Program-made: the position numbers and the translations under genes
IMG/VR virus record: IMGVR_UViG_3300022542_000629
Span: 1 to 48,798 of that record
Reading direction: 5' to 3' (one strand)
Length of the DNA stretch: 48,798 nt
From: a virus
Notes under the pieces: generated by a model
The model's database searches: none
Told to the model about the DNA's origin: nothing
Seen by the model: the letters and a program-made list of their open reading frames with translations, nothing else
In this document: positions 1 to 48,798 of the stretch, piece after piece
How the letters are laid out: the number at the start of each line of letters is the position of its first letter
Numbering within the stretch: the first letter of the stretch is position 1

Positions 1-141
1 GCCAGCGCCGCCTCGAAGCCGGTGTCGGGCAGGTTGCCCAGGTTGCCTGCGGTTTGGCCGTAATCTGCTTTAATCGAGCGGCCGCCAGGAGCACCAGAGG
101 CTTCCCAATCTATCCCGTCTCCGCCGTGAACTGTTCGGCTA
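1..141. repeat. Terminal overlap copy A (identical to 48658..48798)
   Basis: 141/141 identity between the first and last 141 nt, checked base by base. Implies a circular or terminally redundant unit of 48657 bp. Confidence 0.95.
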
Positions 142-821
142 GTATATGGCGGCGATGACAGGCAGAGCCATGCCCGCTCTAGTACCTCGCCCAGCCGCCG
201 CGAGTCGCCCTGCACGATGACCGCCGTGCCCGGCATCCCTTGCGCCTCCCACGTCTCTATGTTCCCGTGATACCGATGCGCCCCCGTGCGCGGTATCTTG
301 CCGCTGTTGCGCACGTAGGACGTTGACGCGGGCCTAGTGAGCAACGTCGCCTGGCGTGTCTTGACTACGGTAGCCCACTCTGTGCCCGGTAGCGGTAGTG
401 GCTTGAACTCTCGCTCATCCGCCACTATGCCCGCTTTCATTATGCACTCAGGACACCAGTGGCGGCCGTCATTGTAACGCGCTTTTCCCCAACGGCCCTG
501 GAAGCGCGCCCAGTCGGCCTTGCTTATGCCGGTACAGTCGCAGCCCTGGCCCATGTCCACGAACCGCTGTTCTAACTCCACGCCGATGAAGTTCAGGCCG
601 TGGCACATCGCTTCCAGTGCGAAGCCGCCGATTCCAGAGAAGCAATCAATCACAGTTTGACCTGGCTCAATCCAGCCTTCCTCCAGCGCGTGCTCGTAGA
701 TGCGCACGGACAGGCCGTAACTGTTTTTTGCCGGATGCGAAAACGACTCAGGTCGGAGTCGGTTCTGGCCCCAACCCTCGCGGTAGAGTCCGTGCCAGCT
801 GTCCATTGGAACCTCGCTCAT
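1..821 (-). CDS. DNA (N6-adenine/N4-cytosine type) methyltransferase, N-terminal part of a junction-spanning gene. Continues in frame at 48657 down to 47799.
   Basis: ATG at 819..821 overlaps (ATGA) the stop of 818..1165. I hand-checked every codon of this frame from 821 to 1 and found no stop. SAM motif I IDCFSGIGGF is at 621..650, preceded by SHPAKNS. The first catalytic motif LSSPPY is at 144..158. Confidence 0.85.
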   Translation of the reverse strand, partial: MSEVPMDSWHGLYREGWGQNRLRPESFSHPAKNSYGLSVRIYEHALEEGWIEPGQTVIDCFSGIGGFALEAMCHGLNFIGVELEQRFVDMGQGCDCTGISKADWARFQGRWGKARYNDGRHWCPECIMKAGIVADEREFKPLPLPGTEWATVVKTRQATLLTRPASTSYVRNSGKIPRTGAHRYHGNIETWEAQGMPGTAVIVQGDSRRLGEVLERAWLCLSSPPYTSRTVHGGDGIDWEASGAPGGRSIKADYGQTAGNLGNLPDTGFEAAL

Positions 822-1165
822 CTCAGCCACGCGACTGCACGCCGCCACCACCGAACCAAGCAGAACAATGGCCCCCAGGCCAGTTCGTTGACCACGACCC
901 TATGCCCTGCTTCTGCCTCATCCCACGTTGAATAGCGCCACTGATCTTGATCATGCTCGCCGCCGAATACCATCGTCTCAAACAGAAGCGGCGGGCCATC
1001 ACCGAACTGATGATCGAGGCCGAGGAATACCGTTGACACTCTAATGTCCTTGCTAAGTGTTGTCTGCTTGACTATCCTGTCCGCCGTCTCAAACTGGGTT
1101 GCCCAGGTGATAACGTCGGATACCTCAACCGGTTCTTTGCCGTCCAAGATATAATGTTCTGTCAT
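818..1165 (-). CDS. Hypothetical protein (115 aa)
   Basis: ORF track. RBS AAAGGAGAGAAATG. Stop overlaps the next start (ATGA). Contains LFETMVFGG...RYSTWDEAEAGH. Confidence 0.65.
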   Translation of the reverse strand: MTEHYILDGKEPVEVSDVITWATQFETADRIVKQTTLSKDIRVSTVFLGLDHQFGDGPPLLFETMVFGGEHDQDQWRYSTWDEAEAGHRVVVNELAWGPLFCLVRWWRRAVAWLR

Positions 1166-1203: not shown

Positions 1204-1635
1204 TCATCCATTTGTCCTAATGCCATCGTCCCACTGCGACCAGTCCCAGTCAAAGTGCTCGCATATTATCTCCAAGATAGGCTTACCATAGAAATGATAG
1301 TTGCAGTATTCATCCTCAACTTGCGCGAGCAAGTCATCCTCACCTGCAAGCCACAGCCAGGCGATGCAATGCATAACTGAACGATTGGCAGAGATACCAC
1401 GGCTGTTGTTTGCCTTGCCCCAAGCGAATTCCATATAAGCATGCATCCGCTTAATAGGCACACCAATCATAGCCACTGCCTCTTGCCAATTCTGTTCTGT
1501 TACATCATCCTTTAGAAACGGTCGCGCATTACTAAAGTCCAAGTAGTTAATGTATTCGCCGGTCTCGAAGCCCAGCAGGTCGTCGTCCTTGCGTGTTTCA
1601 ATGCGTTTGACAATCTCATCTTGCGTTCTCATCAT
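1204..1635 (-). CDS. Hypothetical protein (143 aa)
   Basis: ORF track. Preceded by the duplicated RBS cassette. Confidence 0.65.
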   Translation of the reverse strand: MMRTQDEIVKRIETRKDDDLLGFETGEYINYLDFSNARPFLKDDVTEQNWQEAVAMIGVPIKRMHAYMEFAWGKANNSRGISANRSVMHCIAWLWLAGEDDLLAQVEDEYCNYHFYGKPILEIICEHFDWDWSQWDDGIRTNG

Positions 1636-15304: not shown

Positions 15305-15823
15305 TCAGGCCGGGAGCGGGGGTTGAACCTTATACCTTGTGATGGTAGCAGGTTGCAAGTGAAAAGATGTTAAACACCCGCTTGCGGAAAGTTCACTGAG
15401 GGAGATAGCGACAAACCAAGAACTTCTATCTGGGTTAGATATTTCCCGCCTCGCCTTTTCAAAGAGCCCTGCCTCGCGCATTTGGTTGAGATCGACGAGA
15501 ATCCATTCTGAGATGTGGCCGTTATTTGTCCAGCCATAGAGATACCAGTCACAAAAACCCTCGCGCAATTTGTGAAGTTCTGTTGGTATACCGCTTGGGC
15601 GGCGGCTTCGGATTGTCAAATCTCGATACCCGATATTGCTTCGGCGTACTCTAACGGCAACGCTGCCACCTATAACTTCTATGACCAGGTCAGTCGCTTC
15701 TTTTGTGTCTCTTGTTTCTGGGGCAATCTCAATCTTGACAATGTGCATAGTATTGTCTTTGAGTATGCTTGTCACTTGCGCCAGGCGTTGATCTGACCAG
15801 TAGCGATCAGCCTTATAACTCAT
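15305..15823 (-). CDS. Hypothetical protein (172 aa)
   Basis: ORF track. ATGA overlap with the methylase stop. A nuclease fold (TDLVIEV...RVR) is only a guess. Confidence 0.6.
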   Translation of the reverse strand: MSYKADRYWSDQRLAQVTSILKDNTMHIVKIEIAPETRDTKEATDLVIEVIGGSVAVRVRRSNIGYRDLTIRSRRPSGIPTELHKLREGFCDWYLYGWTNNGHISEWILVDLNQMREAGLFEKARREISNPDRSSWFVAISLSELSASGCLTSFHLQPATITRYKVQPPLPA

Positions 15824-16818
15824 GCCTCATCCCCCCATATCTCAAAGCCCTCCCTTGGCTTGCGGGCGAAAACATCCAGACGCGGCGGTGGGCTGGCAAG
15901 CCTCACGCGCTCATAGAATACGTCTGGCTTCTCTGAGTGTTTGGTTACCGGCGCATCAAACGATAGTTTGAGCCCCATCCGTTCAAGCTTCAGGCTGCCG
16001 ATGCGTCCGAATAATACCAGTTCGGTATTATACATCCACGAGTAAGGTGTCATGCCGGTTGGTTTTACCCAGGTCATCACGCATTGGTATTTGACACCCC
16101 ATTCTGAGAATAAGTCAAAAGCAGCGGGTAGGTGTTTGTGGGTAGTCCATAAGTAGATATGGCAACCATCTTCTGAGGCTAGTTCCCGCAAGGGCAACTT
16201 GGCGATTTCCTCAATGCTCATTGTATGATAGTCAAATCTATCCTGGTTGGGGCGGGCATCCCGGATTATCTTTTGTGTGGGCCAGGGCGGGTCGATGACT
16301 ATAGTCTTATAGCGATGATCAGAACTAGCCTCAAAGGAAAGGATATTGTCAGTAGTTTCTTGTTGCTCTTTTTCAAGCCGTAGTTTCTTTGCCAATCTCA
16401 CTAATCCCATGCTAGTCAATTCTTTTTTGTCCTTGGCTTTTACCTCAACTATGTACTGCTCAAAGGTTTCTGGTGGCACTTCAGCCTCTAGTTGCCAGCG
16501 GCTAGCAGCGCCCCATGATAGATTGTTTTCTTGTAGTGTTGCCGTGTAAGTTAATTCAACCTCCTCCATGCTGGAGGAGGTTAAATCGCTTCGCTTGCCT
16601 GATATTCGTTCTATGCCTGCCAAGAACTCGCCCGCCCGGCGCTCTGCCCGCAACTTCACTTCAGCAGCATCGTTTTGCATCTCTAAGCCGTATTCAGCCA
16701 AGCGGAAGCATTGCCGCATCGCCTCTGCCTGATTGCGAATATTCTTGATTTCGGCGACTGTCTTTGCCTGAGCCAATGCAGTTTCAATGGCGTTCAATTG
16801 AACTAATGCGTTTGACAT
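15820..16818 (-). CDS. MT-A70-family N6-adenine DNA methyltransferase with a helical N-terminal domain
   Basis: IVIDPPWP catalytic motif, HSEKP, and DVFARKPREGFEIWGDE at the C-terminus. RBS GGAGGTAAA before ATG 16818 (the track ORF starts at 16863). Confidence 0.75.
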   Translation of the reverse strand: MSNALVQLNAIETALAQAKTVAEIKNIRNQAEAMRQCFRLAEYGLEMQNDAAEVKLRAERRAGEFLAGIERISGKRSDLTSSSMEEVELTYTATLQENNLSWGAASRWQLEAEVPPETFEQYIVEVKAKDKKELTSMGLVRLAKKLRLEKEQQETTDNILSFEASSDHRYKTIVIDPPWPTQKIIRDARPNQDRFDYHTMSIEEIAKLPLRELASEDGCHIYLWTTHKHLPAAFDLFSEWGVKYQCVMTWVKPTGMTPYSWMYNTELVLFGRIGSLKLERMGLKLSFDAPVTKHSEKPDVFYERVRLASPPPRLDVFARKPREGFEIWGDEA

Positions 16819-16947
16819 TTTACCTCCATAAAAGACGACTCCCACGAGCCCCGGCGTCTGCATTTGTCAAGAGGCAAACGAGTTTAGGCTGTGGGAGTCA
16901 CGGGCACAAAAAAGCCGCCGTGCTCGCGTGTGCCTCTTGACGGGTTT

Positions 16948-17571: not shown

Positions 17572-19203
17572 ATGTCAAAACAGCGCATAGCTATTGTATC
17601 TGTCTCAGTGCTGGCTATTATCGTGGCGCCGGCGATTTTCATCTTCAACATGTCCTTACCTGATGTACCATCTCAGGAATGGTGGGACGACTGCCCACTT
17701 GACCAGATTTGTTCAACTACGGCTCCACAATCTACCTATACGCCCCAGTATACCCACACCCCAGATCCAACGCCTACCTGCCGGCCTACCACCACCTGCC
17801 CGCCCGCTTCTACCGCCCTTCCCACGTCCACGTTGCTTCCCACATCCACGGCGTGGCCGACCCAGCCATACACATCAACCGCCATGCCAGCCCTTACTCC
17901 AACCCCTACGCCGACCGCACCGGCCACGCCTGTCTCTGGTGAAGTGCGCGCCTTCCCCAGCGCAGAGGGCTTTGGAGCAAACTCGATAGGCGGTCATGGC
18001 GGCAGAGTCATCGAGGTGACAAATCTGAACAATAGCGGCCCCGGCAGCCTGCGGGCAGCGATTGAGGCGAACGGACCGCGCATCGTCGTCTTTCGCATCG
18101 GCGGCACAATCGAACTCCAATCAGGTATGAATCTCACCAATCCCTTCATCACCATCGCCGGCCAAACTGCACCCGGCGGCGGCATCACGCTGAAAAACGC
18201 CATAAGCAACAGATATACTCCCATCACAATTTGGACTCACGATGTAATCATACGCTACATCAGGTCTCGGCCTGGTGCTTCTCGCGATCCGGCCAGCGCG
18301 TTGGACGCAATCCAGATGGTTTATGAGAATGCTTACAACATCATCCTCGACCATTGCTCGTTTAGCTGGTCCACCGACGAGGTGGCGTCAACGTGGGGCA
18401 GCGCGCGCGACATCACGATTCAGTGGTGTATCATTGCTGAAGGATTGAACGACAGCACGAACAAAAAAGGACCGCACTCGTGCGGCCTCATCCTTGGCAG
18501 TGACGGCGCGCACAGCATCTCAGTTCATCATAATCTACTGGCTCATCACAGCGATCGAAGCCCGCGCATCAAAACCGGCGGACTCGTCGATTTCGTGAAT
18601 AACGTCATCTATAACCCCGGTGCACAGGCGGGCCTGTTCTCCGCTGGCTCGCTCATCAACTATGTCGGTAACTATGTCGTCGCCGGTGCCGACACCGACA
18701 CCTACGAGGTGAAAGCCTACGCGCCCACCTACGTTCTCGGCAATATCGGCCCGCACCGGCCAACCAACGACCTGCCAGAAAGTTTCATCGTCCGGTCAGA
18801 CCTGCGCTATAACCTGGTAGATACCAGGTTTGACGCCCCTGCCGTCATTACTCAATCCGCACTATTAGCACACGACTACATACTGGCCGACGCCGGTGCC
18901 AACGCTGGCATAGACTGTACTGGTGTATTTTATGAGCGCCGCGACACCGTAGACGCACGCATCGTCAATGACGTAATCAACGGTACCGGCAGCATCATAG
19001 ACGATCCGTCCGAGGTTGGTGGCTGGCCCGCACTGGCGGCAGGCACGCCCTGCACCGACGCTGATCACGACGGCATGCCGGATGAGTGGGAGAACATACA
19101 CGGCTTTGATCCGAACGACGACGCCGACGGTCCTGCCGACACTGATGGGGATGGGTACACCAACATCGAGGAATACCTGAACGGAACAGAGCCGAACGAC
19201 TGA
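17572..19203 (+). CDS. Signal-anchored pectate-lyase-like polysaccharide lyase (PL1-type beta-helix) with a Thr/Pro linker and C-terminal Asp-rich calcium-binding-type repeats
   Basis: N-terminal TM segment IAIVSVSVLAIIVAPAIFIF and a T/P-rich linker. AFPSAEGFGANSIGGHGGRVIEVTNLNNSGPGSLRAAI...ITIAGQTAPGGGITL. C-terminal DADHDGMPDEWE...DTDGDGYTNIEEYLNG. Confidence 0.7.
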   Translation: MSKQRIAIVSVSVLAIIVAPAIFIFNMSLPDVPSQEWWDDCPLDQICSTTAPQSTYTPQYTHTPDPTPTCRPTTTCPPASTALPTSTLLPTSTAWPTQPYTSTAMPALTPTPTPTAPATPVSGEVRAFPSAEGFGANSIGGHGGRVIEVTNLNNSGPGSLRAAIEANGPRIVVFRIGGTIELQSGMNLTNPFITIAGQTAPGGGITLKNAISNRYTPITIWTHDVIIRYIRSRPGASRDPASALDAIQMVYENAYNIILDHCSFSWSTDEVASTWGSARDITIQWCIIAEGLNDSTNKKGPHSCGLILGSDGAHSISVHHNLLAHHSDRSPRIKTGGLVDFVNNVIYNPGAQAGLFSAGSLINYVGNYVVAGADTDTYEVKAYAPTYVLGNIGPHRPTNDLPESFIVRSDLRYNLVDTRFDAPAVITQSALLAHDYILADAGANAGIDCTGVFYERRDTVDARIVNDVINGTGSIIDDPSEVGGWPALAAGTPCTDADHDGMPDEWENIHGFDPNDDADGPADTDGDGYTNIEEYLNGTEPND

Positions 19204-44661: not shown

Positions 44662-45408
44662 ATGAACGCCATAGACGAACTACTCAAAGACCTAAATAGC
44701 GGCGGGCTGATATTCCGCCCTGCTGATCCCGCGCGCATCTCACTCTCAGTTGACCTCGTGCGTCTCACAGAACTAGCGGCGACGACAGTAGTATTTGAGC
44801 CTGGCGTGGACTTCCTCATCCTGACGCCACGCCTGCGTGCCGAGATGAAGGTGCTGGCACCTGGCCTTACTCTCTATTCACAGCGTGATCCACGCTGGCG
44901 CAATCTCGTCTATGCCGGCGGCATGACATTCGGCAAGGCCGGTTGCTACGTCACTGCCGTGGCCATGATACTGAGCCTCGCAGGCTACACCGACGACCCG
45001 CCGACGGTGGCGGCCAAACTGCGTGAGGCGGGATGCTTCTCTGGTGCACTACTGGGGCGACCCGATAGGATACCGGATGCATACCCGCGCATGCGCTACG
45101 ACGGGCCAGTAGATGTAAGCCATGACGGCCCGCTGCGTTGGCATCATGGCGCGGCAGACATGAAGCGGTTCAAGGCAGAACTGGCGAAGGGGCCTTGCAT
45201 CTTCGAGGCAGATTTCATTCCTATCACGGCAAAGTTTAATCAACACTTTTGCGTCGCCGAGCGATTCACACCAGACGGCAAGGATTTGATTATCGCCGAT
45301 CCGTGGGATGGGACGCGCACCAGATTGCTAGAGCGTTACGCCCAAGATCACTGGGACTTAAGTCGGGCACTCTACGGCATGCGCTTACTTCGCATCAAAG
45401 GAACCTAA
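44662..45408 (+). CDS. Putative endolysin, C39-like cysteine peptidase fold
   Basis: YSQRDPRWRN...GKAGCYVTAVAMIL (Cys nucleophile region) and ...HFCVAERF...IIADPWDG (His/Asp region), the pattern of Peptidase_C39_2-like proteins. Confidence 0.5.
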   Translation: MNAIDELLKDLNSGGLIFRPADPARISLSVDLVRLTELAATTVVFEPGVDFLILTPRLRAEMKVLAPGLTLYSQRDPRWRNLVYAGGMTFGKAGCYVTAVAMILSLAGYTDDPPTVAAKLREAGCFSGALLGRPDRIPDAYPRMRYDGPVDVSHDGPLRWHHGAADMKRFKAELAKGPCIFEADFIPITAKFNQHFCVAERFTPDGKDLIIADPWDGTRTRLLERYAQDHWDLSRALYGMRLLRIKGT

Positions 45409-45409
45409 C

Positions 45410-45691
45410 ATGGCAGTCACAAACAAAATGCTACTCGACGAACTCGGACGCCTCCAGTCCCGCGTCAATGAACTGGCCGCTGGCATTGCATTAGTATGCG
45501 AACGCGCGGCGAAACTGGAGACCTGGTGTAATGGGCATAACGAGAACGTGCATCCACGCATGCGCGAACGCATCGACGCTGTGGCAGGCGCACAGGTGCG
45601 GCAGGGTGAGCGGCTGTGGAAAGTTGCCCTGCAGATTGCCAATCTCGCGGCGCTACTGGCGACGATGACCAAGCTGGCGGGCGCTTGGTAA
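45410..45691 (+). CDS. Lysis-associated small protein with a C-terminal hydrophobic helix (XhlA/holin-like)
   Basis: N-terminal coiled region and C-terminal WKVALQIANLAALLATMTKLAGAW. Lies next to the endolysin-like gene. Confidence 0.4.
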   Translation: MAVTNKMLLDELGRLQSRVNELAAGIALVCERAAKLETWCNGHNENVHPRMRERIDAVAGAQVRQGERLWKVALQIANLAALLATMTKLAGAW

Positions 45692-46137
45692 GCCTTTGCC
45701 TCGCCGCTTGTATCACCGCGGATACCTGCCAAGCGCTGCCGAGCGAGTGCCCGCCGCTGCTTCCGGGCTGGGCCACGCCACGCTGGATACATGATGCTGC
45801 CGGGATAGTGGCCGGCGAGACGGTGCACGACTGCGCCACGTGCGACCGGTGGATTGCGTGCACGGTGGTCAAGGACGTGACGCTGCGCGGGTATCACCCG
45901 TGGCGATTGAGGCCCGGTCGCTGGCACGGGTGGAGGCGGCCCGGGGAGCGACACCTAACGGCAGTTGAGGCCGCGCTCAAAGGCGAATGTAGGGACACGC
46001 CGGAATGTGCCTATCTCGGCTCGCTTTCAGACTACACTCGAAACTGGCGTTTCAATCTGGCGCGTGAGCAACAGGTGTCGGCTATTGGCAATTCCCGGGG
46101 CGTCATTGTCTGTGTCCTGCCACTCAATGATAACTGA
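45616..46137 (+). CDS. Cys-rich hypothetical protein; start unresolved
   Basis: The only in-frame ATG (45616) overlaps the previous gene by 76 nt. TTG 45685 is an alternative start. Contains 8+ Cys residues (CQALPSEC, CATCDRWIAC, CRDTPEC). Confidence 0.4.
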   Translation: MESCPADCQSRGATGDDDQAGGRLVSLCLAACITADTCQALPSECPPLLPGWATPRWIHDAAGIVAGETVHDCATCDRWIACTVVKDVTLRGYHPWRLRPGRWHGWRRPGERHLTAVEAALKGECRDTPECAYLGSLSDYTRNWRFNLAREQQVSAIGNSRGVIVCVLPLNDN

Positions 46138-46263
46138 CTTCCCTTCATGCTCAAATTCGTCACGGTGCGGGCTGCTATGCTCCTTCTCTAGCATGCAGAC
46201 GAATGAACAGTTTACGCTGCTGCGGTAATAGCCTGAGAGATACAATATATCACCGCATATCAT
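46027..46263 (-). CDS. Possible 78-aa protein convergently overlapping the end of the plus-strand arm
   Basis: AGGAGG 9 nt upstream of ATG 46263. Overlaps 45616..46137 by 111 nt on the opposite strand. Confidence 0.3.
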   Translation of the reverse strand: MICGDILYLSGYYRSSVNCSFVCMLEKEHSSPHRDEFEHEGKSVIIEWQDTDNDAPGIANSRHLLLTRQIETPVSSVV

Positions 46264-46298
46264 GTCAAGCCCCCTCCTATATCTAGTCACTCAAACAA

Positions 46299-46601
46299 CT
46301 AACTCGTATAAATCCGCAGCGCCTCAGTTCCCAGCGGCAAGTCAGCGATCTTGATGATCATGCCGTTGCTATACTTTACATCACCCTCGCCTCGGATGCT
46401 GATGGAAATCATCTCGCCAGTGGGCATGTCAATTTCCTCATCTGGTAACCGGCTATCATTGCCTAATGCCTCTTGTAGATATTCTATTATCCGGTTCGGC
46501 GGCTCAATACCTATTGCAACGAGAGCATTGTAAGCTAGCAGATATTCCAAGTCATCCTCGCTAACTTTACGATGCGCTTCCACGTAGACGCTAACTGACA
46601 T
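46299..46601 (-). CDS. Hypothetical protein (100 aa), last gene of the leftward arm
   Basis: ORF track. RBS GGAGGTGAATA. Confidence 0.6.
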   Translation of the reverse strand: MSVSVYVEAHRKVSEDDLEYLLAYNALVAIGIEPPNRIIEYLQEALGNDSRLPDEEIDMPTGEMISISIRGEGDVKYSNGMIIKIADLPLGTEALRIYTS

Positions 46602-46840
46602 TATTCACCTCCTGTATCTAACCACTCAAACAGCCGCCCCCCACAGCACGCCAGCAGGATCAGCGACCGGTGTTCCTGCCACGTCTCACCGGTGGCCTGG
46701 CCCAGTGCCTCGGCCAGTTGCTCGATGTCGAAGGCGCAAAATTGGCTAGCATCCCAGCGCCCTTTGATTGCTAGATAGCGATTACTTTGGCGCAGTGAGA
46801 AGATGAGCGGCCCGCCGGTTTCCTTGGTTGTTAGGAACAT
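46601..46840 (-). CDS. Hypothetical protein (79 aa from ATG 46840)
   Basis: RBS GGAGGAGGCGAC before ATG 46840. Confidence 0.55.
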   Translation of the reverse strand: MFLTTKETGGPLIFSLRQSNRYLAIKGRWDASQFCAFDIEQLAEALGQATGETWQEHRSLILLACCGGRLFEWLDTGGE

Positions 46841-47064
46841 GTCGCCTCCTCCACTCTCGCCAACTCCACCTTCATCGGCTCGGCACCCGCCACGGGCGCT
46901 TGCCACGTCAGCGTGTCGCCGATCGCCATCGCGCTGAGCAATCGCACCAGCGGCGCTTTAAGGCTCAGGCACTCTTTGCCATCGCCACCAGTTGCGACGA
47001 CGCGAAGTTGCAACTCCTCGTTATTCAGCTTAACTGTCACGATCATGCCAAGTTTTAGTTTCAT
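46831..47064 (-). CDS. GreA/GreB C-terminal-domain-like protein (77 aa, no coiled-coil finger)
   Basis: LGMIVTVKLNNEELQLRVVATGG...LSLKAPLVRLLSAMAIGDTLTWQAP...MKVELARVE matches the pattern G..V.v....ee....iVg.....iS..SPla.aLlG...GD.v. RBS CAGGAGGCAAG. Confidence 0.55.
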   Translation of the reverse strand: MKLKLGMIVTVKLNNEELQLRVVATGGDGKECLSLKAPLVRLLSAMAIGDTLTWQAPVAGAEPMKVELARVEEATCS

Positions 47065-47459
47065 CTTGCCTCCTGTCTTGGTATAACTACTATTTCCACG
47101 CGCGGCCTGTCGCACCCGATGCGTTTGGTGATGAGTGCGCTAAATATCTGGCTATCGTCGTGATAGACGATGCCTTGTAAGGAATCCGCGATGCTCTTGG
47201 CGAGGTTGTCGTAATCCACGCGCCGCCTATCTGCACGGTAGAATGTCAGTTGAATCGATAGCGGCCCCTTCATTGGTTCCTGCGTCCACGTCAGCGCCGC
47301 CGCGTCCCTGATCAACGCCTCATAGTCCCTGGTGGCTTCTGGCGTGTAAGCATGGCCGTCTACAACGCGCGGGCGACCCTTTGGAATTGGATTGCCCCCT
47401 ACCGTCAATTCAAAGATGCGGCGGGAACCGTAGAATGCTTGCTTCTCAGTCACTGGCAT
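47061..47459 (-). CDS. rusA: RusA-family Holliday junction resolvase
   Basis: PKGRPRV...YTPEATRDYE...DYDNLAKSIADSLQGIVYHDDSQI. RBS GAGGAGG before ATG 47459. Confidence 0.75.
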   Translation of the reverse strand: MPVTEKQAFYGSRRIFELTVGGNPIPKGRPRVVDGHAYTPEATRDYEALIRDAAALTWTQEPMKGPLSIQLTFYRADRRRVDYDNLAKSIADSLQGIVYHDDSQIFSALITKRIGCDRPRVEIVVIPRQEAR

Positions 47460-47631
47460 CCTCCTCTGCATCATCAGGCAGACGCTGATATGCCCACCAC
47501 AGTGCCCGATCGCAAGCAGCGATAACTGACAACGGCGGCATTTGTTTGAGTGCCCACCGCACCAGAAAGTTGACCGCCTCAGCCGTTGTTTTATCATCTG
47601 GACTTGTGCCATAGTTTATGATCTCTGTCAC
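47446..47631 (-). CDS. Hypothetical protein (61 aa, GTG start)
   Basis: GTGA overlap with the stop of the upstream micro-ORF. Confidence 0.4.
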   Translation of the reverse strand: MTEIINYGTSPDDKTTAEAVNFLVRWALKQMPPLSVIAACDRALWWAYQRLPDDAEEDASD

Positions 47632-47729
47632 CGCCCGCCCACCCCTGGCTTGCGGAAGCCGAACACCAAGATGAGTACGCAAATCACAGCCGCGAATAAA
47701 AGCAAACCTAAAACTACGTATCCTAACAT
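47628..47729 (-). CDS. Possible 33-aa TM peptide
   Basis: Hand translation MLGYVVLGLLLFAAVICVLILVFGFRKPGVGGR. RBS GGAGGCAGTGCA. Confidence 0.4.
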   Translation of the reverse strand: MLGYVVLGLLLFAAVICVLILVFGFRKPGVGGR

Positions 47730-47798
47730 TGCACTGCCTCCATAACGTCTAGTTCAAACTGTAGCAGATTCTCACAAGTAGGGCTTTGGTGCGAGCGG

Positions 47799-48798
47799 TC
47801 ACTGCGGCTTTTCCATGCATAAAATCAACTCCCAGTCGATGCGCGGTGCTCCCTTTTTCTCGCATAAAATTCTGAAAAAGCTCTTATACCACTTCTCCAT
47901 GCTTACTTCATCACCGTCCAACGTGATCTGCATAATGTCAGCATTCTTGTTCATCCAGGCGCGATGCTTGCAGACAGTGTGGAAGCCGACAGACTGGCAT
48001 AGCGCCTCCCATTGCCCAGGGAAATCTACCAGCCGCCCCGACCTGACGAACATTTTAAGAACCCATATCGCATGCCCGCCCGGCGCGAGCACCTTATAGA
48101 CCTCCTCCAATATCTGCCTACTTGCGGCCCAGAACGTGGAGCCGGTTTCGTTGCCCATTTGTCCTTCGGTTTGTCCATATTCGTCAGTTTGCCCAGCGAG
48201 TACTGAGCCAACATGTCCAAATTTCTCGCGGTTGGCAGCATTCAAATTATGCGCTACGTCACTGGTTTCCCACGGCGGCGATGATAGGCAAAGTTCCGCC
48301 CTCCCCGTCTCCGCGCCCGCCTCCAGCGCCGCCGCGTGGTCGCCGGTGGGCAGGGCGGCGAGTTGGCCGTCAGACTGCGGGATGTCATAGTCACGCTTGC
48401 ATCGGTTGTATGCCTCATCCTTGTCGTAGGAATGAAAGCCTTTTGTCTCGCCGCCTTTGACGTAAGTGGACTGGAATGGAGGTGAGGACAGGGCCAAGTC
48501 AAAAGAGCCTTCGGGCATCTGCGCCAGTTGACCCGGGCCACTTCCATAACCGTTCATTATGCGCGCCTGTGAATTTGGCCCGGCCTTACCTAGTTTCTCA
48601 ATATCTATTCCAGGCTTGCCCTCACGAATACTGCCAATGTAGGGCGGTGAGCCCAGGGCCAGCGCCGCCTCGAAGCCGGTGTCGGGCAGGTTGCCCAGGT
48701 TGCCTGCGGTTTGGCCGTAATCTGCTTTAATCGAGCGGCCGCCAGGAGCACCAGAGGCTTCCCAATCTATCCCGTCTCCGCCGTGAACTGTTCGGCTA
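47799..48798 (-). CDS. Same methyltransferase, C-terminal part. The last 141 nt duplicate 1..141.
   Basis: The frame of ORF 47799..48557 stays open upstream to the window end (...TGFEAALALGSPPYIGSIREGKPGIDIEKLGKAGPNSQARIMNGY...). 48657 is divisible by 3, so it joins 1..821 in frame, giving 559 aa in total. SPPY at 48639..48650, SPPF at 48474..48485, SPPW at 48270..48281, then VLAPGGHAIWVLK. Confidence 0.8.
   Translation of the reverse strand, partial: SRTVHGGDGIDWEASGAPGGRSIKADYGQTAGNLGNLPDTGFEAALALGSPPYIGSIREGKPGIDIEKLGKAGPNSQARIMNGYGSGPGQLAQMPEGSFDLALSSPPFQSTYVKGGETKGFHSYDKDEAYNRCKRDYDIPQSDGQLAALPTGDHAAALEAGAETGRAELCLSSPPWETSDVAHNLNAANREKFGHVGSVLAGQTDEYGQTEGQMGNETGSTFWAASRQILEEVYKVLAPGGHAIWVLKMFVRSGRLVDFPGQWEALCQSVGFHTVCKHRAWMNKNADIMQITLDGDEVSMEKWYKSFFRILCEKKGAPRIDWELILCMEKPQ
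48658..48798. repeat. Terminal overlap copy B (identical to 1..141)
   Basis: Same as copy A. The identity runs exactly to both window edges. Confidence 0.95.

Follow-up and report, generated by a model that had tools for sequence, protein, structure and literature searches.

The multispecific C5-methyltransferases of phages, such as M.SPRI, M.Phi3TI and M.H2I, consist of one core which binds S-adenosylmethionine (SAM) and of tandem variable modules of ~40-55 amino acids (aa) with short conserved anchors. The modules are non-redundant, their number varies between related phages, they can be reordered or deleted, and the purpose of the arrangement is to evade several restriction systems. They are pure recognition domains placed between motifs VIII and IX, the Pro-Cys catalytic loop being single, and the multispecificity has been shown experimentally; the source studies are reportedly those of Wilke 1988, Walter 1992 and Trautner 1996. 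Amino-methyltransferases by definition pair one SAM motif with one (D/N/S)PP(Y/F/W) loop. The gene considered here departs from that definition. It lies in the IMG/VR virus record IMGVR_UViG_3300022542_000629 (48,798 nucleotides (nt); this whole stretch of DNA is called the window) and codes for a 559-aa protein, referred to as the query, with a single SAM-binding motif and four tandem cassettes, each with its own SPP(Y/F/W) tetrapeptide. As far as can be judged from sequences, the multi-cassette architecture is a conserved trait of a large, unnamed and mostly phage-borne family, which systematically breaks the rule of one SAM motif and one loop, with as many as 12 catalytic loops to a SAM pocket.

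The gene is split by the ends of the window. Positions 1..141 are identical to 48658..48798, and because of this exact 141-bp terminal direct repeat the window is taken to be a linearised circular assembly with a unit of 48,657 bp. The original prediction had postulated that one open reading frame (ORF) spans the junction. This was confirmed, as translation of the joined minus strand, 821..1 followed by 48657..47799, gives 559 aa and a stop with zero internal stops, and the motif coordinates given at that time were all correct when checked again in the sequence. The public Joint Genome Institute (JGI) contig Ga0247425_1000051 crosses the junction (238..1 and then 48657..44799) with 0 mismatches in 4,097 nt. 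It has a length of 48,712 bp, which is 48,657 + 55, and is cut at window coordinate 238, also within the methyltransferase gene. The protein fragment on this contig (P0001) is 100% identical to the query, and P0001 and L080 from this contig span the junction without mismatch.

Both the sequence and a repeat model bear out the further claim of one motif I and four whole modules, which precede the VLAPGG strand and each run from SPPx to GQ(L/M)G. A cassette is ~55 aa long and consists of a beta4-like strand with the SPPx tetrapeptide, a variable loop of 25-50 aa, and the element YGxxxGQLGxMP. A hidden Markov model (HMM) of 57 positions, built from 182 units of other family members with the query left out (consensus GDFDAVVSSPPYADSLGGGGNGIDPGKLADNGRRHGSGKGAGGGYGESPGQLGNMPE), has four matches in the query, at E-values between 1e-10 and 5e-17. 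From the composition of the query 0.0105 SPP[YFW] motifs are expected per protein, the probability of finding four or more is ~5e-10, and more than two were found in 0 of 200,000 shuffles of the query. The four modules have pairwise identities of 22-46% in protein and 34-55% in DNA, and the longest exact internal DNA repeat in the coding sequence (CDS) is 11 nt. A collapsed or expanded assembly repeat, which the original prediction had named as a way in which the array could be false, is thereby excluded. Recent slippage or concerted evolution was also considered and is ruled out by the DNA divergence and by the positional orthology of the modules among close homologues.

The beta-class of amino-methyltransferases is defined by the motif order IV - TRD - I, where TRD is the target recognition domain; motifs I and IV are found at the C-terminal ends of the adjacent strands beta1 and beta4, the aromatic residue of motif IV stacks on the flipped base, and its first residue contacts the target amine (PMC7544214). 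In the query the linear order is HPAK, motif I, motif II, an insertion with four cysteines (Cys4), motif III (QGDSR), motif IV, a helix, the VLAPGG strand and the last strands, motif I occupying aa 57-67 and motif IV first appearing at aa 223. Because motif I precedes motif IV the query is a permuted relative and no formal member of the beta-class. The same order, I before IV, is that of the gamma-class/Trm11-like enzymes, and aTrm11 is among the structural neighbours of the model of a homologue (P0009, see below). The motifs themselves are of the amino-methyltransferase type: DCFSGIGG agrees with the FxGxG of motif I, and SPPY, SPPY, SPPF and SPPW agree with (D/N/S)PP(Y/F/W), and the Pfam comparison gave no match in the query to PF00145, the C5-cytosine family with a Pro-Cys motif IV. 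The sole Pfam match is PF01555 (N6_N4_Mtase), at 37.4 bits against a gathering cut-off of 26.7, and it is limited to aa 27-90, which correspond to profile positions 160-218 of 221, the motif X-I-II part which is C-terminal in the profile. In Pfam PF01170 and PF05175 gave no match in the query; precomputed hits to them exist for some homologues.

The closest solved relative is TTHA0409 of Thermus thermophilus (PDB 2zie/2zif/2zig), which aligns to the query in three pieces. Its C-terminal HPAPFP...DPFAGTG...GVEL aligns with the N-terminus of the query, its N-terminal EVLASFPEASVHLVVTSPPYW with a cassette, and its YEDTPGQLG...RLLVPGG pairs with the last part of cassette 4 and with the C-terminal core, where the query has the segment TFW...VLAPGGHAIWV at 48137..48060. 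On its motifs, then, the query is a PF01555-like (beta-class-like) amino-methyltransferase, a phage orphan with the motif order reversed. The cysteines of the Cys4 insertion are at least 90% conserved in alignment A4 and the insertion is modelled confidently. It may participate in DNA binding, since the usual TRD position falls at the chain termini in the permuted enzyme.

A search of 5.8 billion proteins returned 446 relatives. The top 120 homologues have between 1 and 11 SPP[YFWH] motifs, most often 4, the median distance between motifs being 58 aa; in the first 120 homologues protein length follows cassette number (r=0.73) on a constant core of ~330 aa. When the cassette profile was run exhaustively against 1.84 billion representatives it matched 1,731 proteins at E<=1e-3, 1,211 at E<=1e-10 and 346 at E<=1e-30, with up to 12 stretches in one protein. 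Both core halves are common to 225 of 243 collected proteins and the remainder is mostly fragment-like. Members with a single cassette occur (P0078, P0092, P0080 and P0025). Where one motif IV per SAM-binding domain is the definition, there are four in the query and 1-12 across the family, so that the homologues with other module numbers which the original prediction had called for do exist, and the modules, being conserved across a large family, are no linker peculiar to one protein and absent from its homologues.

At least 64 viral contigs in IMG/VR, 15-140 kb in size, bear full-length relatives. A scan of 185,579 species-representative genomes gave 7 loci, all in metagenome-assembled genomes (Phycisphaerae, Chloroflexota, Nitrospirales, Gammaproteobacteria, Pirellulales and Solirubrobacteraceae), and a tblastn search with the protein against 50,697 GenBank phage records gave no match at E<=1e-5. 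NCBIfam has no model for the family and gave sub-threshold matches to motif I only; NCBI labels the members 'hypothetical protein'. One viral contig of 114 kb, IMGVR_UViG_2721755344_000002, has two paralogous copies (L058 and L059) ~37 kb apart.

In order to compare the loops, 1,176 variable stretches from SPPx to YG..GQL, taken from 243 proteins, were clustered into types, a typing which depends on the chosen clustering parameters. Of the resulting types 49 recur, with 5 or more members each. The consensus of type T0 is TVHGxxGIDxxKLTGNxxGxNSQ, that of T3 is SDDPxKRGGLFRDPKR, and that of T1 is GGTxxxxxGPLADxxLxxRHAAGN; the loops of T6, T9 and T10 are helical. Duplicates of the same type within one protein were observed 6 times, where shuffling of the labels gives an expectation of 27.4 +/- 4.8 and a minimum of 12 in 2,000 shuffles; it should be noted that such tests overstate independence, as the proteins are phylogenetically related. 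Both orders were seen for 86 of the 125 type pairs which co-occur in at least 3 proteins, and there are 204 distinct ordered strings of types among 224 proteins. The modules differ from one another, are non-redundant and do not keep a fixed order. The aromatic residue of SPPx tracks the type of the loop (T1 has F in 35 of 36, T0 has Y in 51 of 54, T9 has W in 13 and F in 8), which indicates that the loop is passed on together with its catalytic tetrapeptide. A code of the TALE kind, in which one cassette reads one base, was considered and rejected, as there are far more than 4 types and repeats of the same type are depleted, though recognition sites often repeat bases.

The close homologues have an N-terminal core half (N-core) 74-82% and a C-terminal half (C-core) up to 92% identical to that of the query, yet they have 2-5 cassettes, and the cassettes of the query find their best matches at equivalent positions among them. 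The cassettes thus appear to turn over fast on a conserved core. Compared with aa 444-559 of the query, the C-core of homologues P0002-P0013 comes in two versions, 86-92% or 49-55% identical, with the N-core staying at 74-82%; this suggests intragenic recombination with a breakpoint in or beside the cassette array. In the single-cassette protein P0092 (385 aa), around YGDHPAQLGAMREGEFSAGQLGVESGETFW, the cassette end AQLGAMREGEF stands directly before a second GQLG and the core helix. This junction looks like the deletion scar of a recombination between conserved anchors.

Positional statistics were obtained from 1,295 cassettes detected with the HMM. SPP[YFW] is intact in 232 of 240 first, 750 of 812 internal (92%) and 229 of 240 last cassettes. 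The first residue of the tetrapeptide is nearly always Ser, and Asp or Asn was found in 0 of the 1,295. The hydrophobicity of the strand, YG..GQLG and the MPxG turn before the strand are equally conserved in first, internal and last cassettes. Many types are found at all positions (first/internal/last: T0 11/34/9, T2 4/22/10, T24 3/4/3); the first position is enriched in T5, T13 and T27 and the last in T8 and T9. T9, which is usually internal or last, is the only cassette of P0080. In ~2% of the cassettes His takes the place of the aromatic residue (SPPH), concentrated in T18 and T25.

The reading which we favour postulates one SAM pocket and, in the cassettes, a choice of inserts which would provide its active site and recognise the target; this would make the protein a multispecific anti-restriction methyltransferase. 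Each cassette would be a self-contained insert whose conserved anchors (strand, SPPx, YG and GQLG) let it complete the single SAM-binding core, and whose type-specific loop would read a different DNA context, so that one polypeptide would have several specificities. Docking of the cassettes would be mutually exclusive, either set at folding or exchanged later. The scheme would be the amino-methyltransferase counterpart of the tandem recognition modules in the multispecific phage C5-methyltransferases. We favour it because every cassette keeps elements which have a role only inside the core, because the variable loops are located where the enzyme meets its substrate, and because non-redundancy and shuffling are expected of specificity modules. 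For multispecificity, which the original prediction had proposed as a possible role, the non-redundant and shuffled types are real, though indirect, support. It is put forward tentatively, at somewhat less than an even chance.

In its most far-reaching form the idea describes a natural alternate-frame enzyme, a Rossmann core without a fixed central strand which is completed by any of N cassettes of beta4, motif IV and loop, each with its own DNA specificity. That much we consider rather doubtful. If it were true, one phage gene would give several methyltransferase isoforms, specificities would pass from phage to phage in new combinations through recombination between conserved anchors, and the code from cassette to motif could be read from metagenomes with methylation calls.

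Several observations weigh against alternative inserts. The exchange of a central beta strand is physically demanding, and to our knowledge there is no natural enzyme in which it has been documented. The query itself has two T0 cassettes and is thereby one of the rare proteins with a duplicate of the same type, and since tandem duplicates of very recent origin are hard to assemble, the deficit of such duplicates may be slightly overstated. SPPx is followed by Glu in 63% of the last cassettes and in 7% of the internal and <5% of the first ones, and cassette 4 of the query bears this Glu. The types T15, T16, T22, T25, T28 and T29 were internal in 69 of 69 cases. The Glu of the last cassettes and the internal-only types hint at one resident cassette plus accessory ones. 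Structure prediction with AlphaFold2 lends alternative docking no support. In the AlphaFold2 model of the query aa 1-218 and 445-559 mostly have a predicted local distance difference test (pLDDT) score >90, the region 219-444 is below 50 throughout, and no cassette is placed as beta4. The homologue P0009 has two cassettes on a core 78-89% identical to that of the query, and its AlphaFold2 model has a predicted template modelling (pTM) score of 0.73; in this model only the last cassette forms the strand (residues E276-281 before SPPF, pLDDT ~70) and the first is below 50. The docking of the last cassette only, together with the signature of last cassettes, weakens the original notion of four equivalent alternative loops.

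The main rival explanation follows from these points. It hypothesizes one resident catalytic cassette, most likely the last, preceded by accessory cassettes with pseudo-active sites. The upstream cassettes would form a flexible array between helix alphaC and beta4, in which non-catalytic SPPx pockets and loops bind DNA, flipped bases or other partners and tune affinity, processivity or site choice. Apart from the docking in P0009, the Glu and the internal-only types, it is favoured by a special spacer before the last cassette which is common to the query and P0009, and by the low pLDDT of the whole array, which is 15% Gly. It leaves unexplained why the buried-strand pattern, the SPP-aromatic motif, YG..GQLG and the turn before the strand are as strict internally as terminally, and it fits poorly with the many types (T0, T2 and T24) which occur first, internally and last and with T9 as the sole cassette of P0080. 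The docked strand, moreover, was modelled with a pLDDT of only ~70. Duplicated segments which compete are a known difficulty for AlphaFold (PMC12344692), so the docking results are weak evidence, and the low confidence on the array may itself be due to competition between duplicated segments. We believe that a resident cassette has a real but minor chance of being the right explanation.

It should be noted that Foldseek with the query model gave 0 hits in the PDB at E<=1e-3, which is uninformative because that model has no placed cassette and a split core. The P0009 model gave 187 PDB hits at E<=1e-3 and is matched along its entire length by class I SAM methyltransferases; viral proteins with the annotation of N4-cytosine or DNA methylase match it as well.

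A further model supposes that the cassettes fold together as a continuous beta/alpha repeat, an extended sheet or solenoid between beta4 and beta5. The SPPx loops would then stand in a row and could, for instance, grip an unwound DNA strand, and only the loop next to SAM would be catalytic. The regular unit of ~55 aa with strand, loop (helical in T6, T9 and T10) and next strand would suit such a structure, as would a copy number which is variable as in solenoid proteins. Neither AlphaFold2 model contains anything of the kind, though AlphaFold2 is usually good on solenoids; the free permutation of the order and the frequent gain and loss contradict a packing of specific neighbours, and the deficit of same-type duplicates is unexpected for a purely structural repeat. 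We regard this model as improbable.

The enzyme could also be imagined as a protein (glutamine) methyltransferase or as self-regulating. The GQ of YGxxxGQLG would then be a substrate or pseudosubstrate, by analogy with HemK/PrmC acting on GGQ, and the array would be a string of substrates or autoinhibitory elements. Every cassette does have a conserved Gly-Gln, and NPPY enzymes of this superfamily methylate glutamine (PMC7544214). Nevertheless PGQLG follows SPPY also in the single-module putative DNA methylase TTHA0409 and is thus part of the fold and no added substrate, Asn was never the first residue of the motif, the repetition of strand and SPPx is left without explanation, and the genomic context is that of DNA replication and recombination. 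The idea is very improbable. That the array is the artefact of a mis-assembled or falsely circularised repeat, or a spurious ORF, is hardly conceivable: the contig does end inside the repeat region and the gene is complete only once circularised, and against this stand the low DNA identity of the modules and the lack of longer exact repeats, the public contig which passes the junction, the orthology by position among close homologues, and uninterrupted full-length homologues of the same architecture inside long linear contigs (e.g. P0002, P0005, P0011 and L009-L015). Nothing supports the idea that the loops are decoys for an anti-methylase defence.

The target of the enzyme would be DNA. Methylation of an exocyclic amine in DNA is inferred from homology, from the replication-module context and from the structural neighbours named N4-cytosine methylases. 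The target is probably cytosine-N4, because motif IV starts with Ser, with adenine-N6 as the alternative; the choice between the two is based on this Ser and on the annotated structural neighbours only. The biological role would be to shield the phage DNA from host restriction.

The window is a siphovirus-like genome with a large terminase, a portal, a major head protein, a tape-measure protein and a minor tail protein. The methyltransferase belongs to a minus-strand replication and recombination module, where its neighbours are a RusA-like resolvase, a DnaC-like loader, a replication initiator and a Sak4-like protein. The coordinates are collected in Table 1. The ATG of the gene, at 821..819, shares bases with the stop of the small ORF upstream. 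In locus L008 a 143-aa gene stands two genes upstream of P0009, which may point to a conserved neighbourhood. As an MT-A70 gene is also present, the phage bears two unrelated amino-methyltransferases. The pectate-lyase-like gene is located upstream of the terminase and apart from the tail genes, and its product may be a depolymerase. The plus-strand ORFs 48122..48460 and 48476..48730 were not taken as genes, given the strong homology on the minus strand.

Table 1. Features of the methyltransferase gene and of other genes in the window.
Feature	Position	Strand	Basis
Methyltransferase CDS, 5' part, aa 1 to 274	1..821	-	joined translation, ORF list
Methyltransferase CDS, 3' part, aa 274 to 559, with stop codon 47801..47799	47799..48657	-	joined translation; P0001, L080
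Second copy of the 141-bp terminal overlap	48658..48798	.	linearisation artefact, counted once in the gene
HPAK (aa 29-32), family-invariant; the HPxxxP element before motif I of PF01555 enzymes	726..737	-	invariant alignment columns; aligns to TTHA0409 HPAPFP
Motif I, SAM-binding loop VIDCFSGIGGF (aa 57-67), sole copy in the protein	621..653	-	PF01555 match; D59, F61, G63 invariant
Motif II, IGVELE	570..587	-	sequence
Cys4 (CxC...CxxC) insertion (aa 94-126), putative zinc ribbon, between motifs II and III	444..542	-	sequence
Motif III/strand beta3, VIVQGDSRRL (aa 201-210); G205, D206, S207 invariant	192..221	-	alignment, model
Cassette 1 (aa 215-268), SPPY at 155..144, loop type T0	18..179	-	repeat HMM 2.5e-16 (aa 219-266), typing
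Cassette 2, first 17 nt (aa 269 to 274), continuing at 48657	1..17	-	repeat HMM
Cassette 2, remainder (to aa 323), SPPY at 48650..48639, loop type T0	48510..48657	-	repeat HMM 5e-17 (aa 270-323), typing
Cassette 3 (aa 324-391), SPPF at 48485..48474, type T24, followed by a 13-aa spacer	48306..48509	-	repeat HMM 9e-12 (aa 324-378), typing
Cassette 4, last (aa 392-447), SPPW at 48281..48270, SPPW-E at 48281..48267, singleton loop type	48138..48305	-	repeat HMM 1e-10 (aa 392-443), typing
C-terminal half of the catalytic core (aa 448-559): helix TFWAASRQILEEVY, strand VLAPGGHAIWV, remaining strands	47802..48137	-	pLDDT >90; aligns to TTHA0409 residues 55-132
Small ORF directly upstream of the methyltransferase, overlapping its start (ATGA)	818..1165	-	no family match
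Small ORF upstream of the methyltransferase	1204..1635	-	phrog_5706, function unknown
Second methyltransferase, MT-A70 family	15820..16863	-	PF05063 2.4e-18; phrog_359
543-aa protein, phage pectate-lyase-like/hydrolase families	17572..19203	+	phrog_27797, 9e-69

The original prediction had supposed that such an architecture was undescribed. This agrees with what was searched: neither full-text searches of the literature on tandem, multiple or repeated SPPY/DPPY motifs nor the curated family libraries yielded a description of it, and NCBIfam and the NCBI annotation have none. There is a substantial chance that the family holds a new folding or specificity principle. If each cassette sets a target, the phage would have a new viral route to protection from many restriction systems with one small gene, the protein would be the first multispecific N4C/N6A enzyme, and the family could supply epigenetic engineering with a natural set of exchangeable specificity cassettes. 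If the cassettes alternate in completing the fold, the enzyme would be an example, rare in nature, of mutually exclusive folding. Even with one resident cassette there remains a large unannotated family, with at least 1,700 clusters at 50% identity, which at present goes under 'hypothetical protein' or is mislabelled.

The known systems resemble the query in different ways. Engineered proteins with alternate-frame folding or mutually exclusive folding have a duplicated fold segment whose copies compete for one slot, as the cassettes of the query may do (PMC12344692; PMC5133956). Those designs are laboratory-made with two identical or nearly identical copies, whereas the present family is natural and has up to 12 diverged copies. 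Fused double methyltransferases also have more than one motif IV in one polypeptide. They duplicate motif I and the whole domain, in contrast to the query, which has a single motif I, single strands beta1-3 and beta5-7, and one N-core and one C-core.

With the PF01555 enzymes and TTHA0409 the query has in common HPAxxP, motif I DxFxGxG, motif II GxELE, YxxxPGQLG and a helix followed by LxPGG, as well as the putative DNA substrate; with TTHA0409 it also shares a strand of the form P-E-x-S-x-D-hydrophobic followed by SPPY. It differs from the PF01555 enzymes in having motif I before motif IV instead of IV-TRD-I, which moves the usual TRD position to the chain termini, and in having the Cys4 insertion between motifs II and III. 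It differs from TTHA0409 in that the motif IV segment is present four times (1-12 times in the family) with loops of 25-50 aa instead of ~10.

The multispecific C5 enzymes are the counterpart in organization: they too are phage-encoded and have one core with tandem non-redundant variable modules, and in the query family likewise the modules lie in a single catalytic domain and differ in number between related phages. Unlike the recognition modules of the C5 enzymes, however, each module of the query family bears a catalytic tetrapeptide and a central beta strand, the chemistry and the region of the fold are different, and the multispecificity demonstrated for the C5 enzymes is here a prediction.

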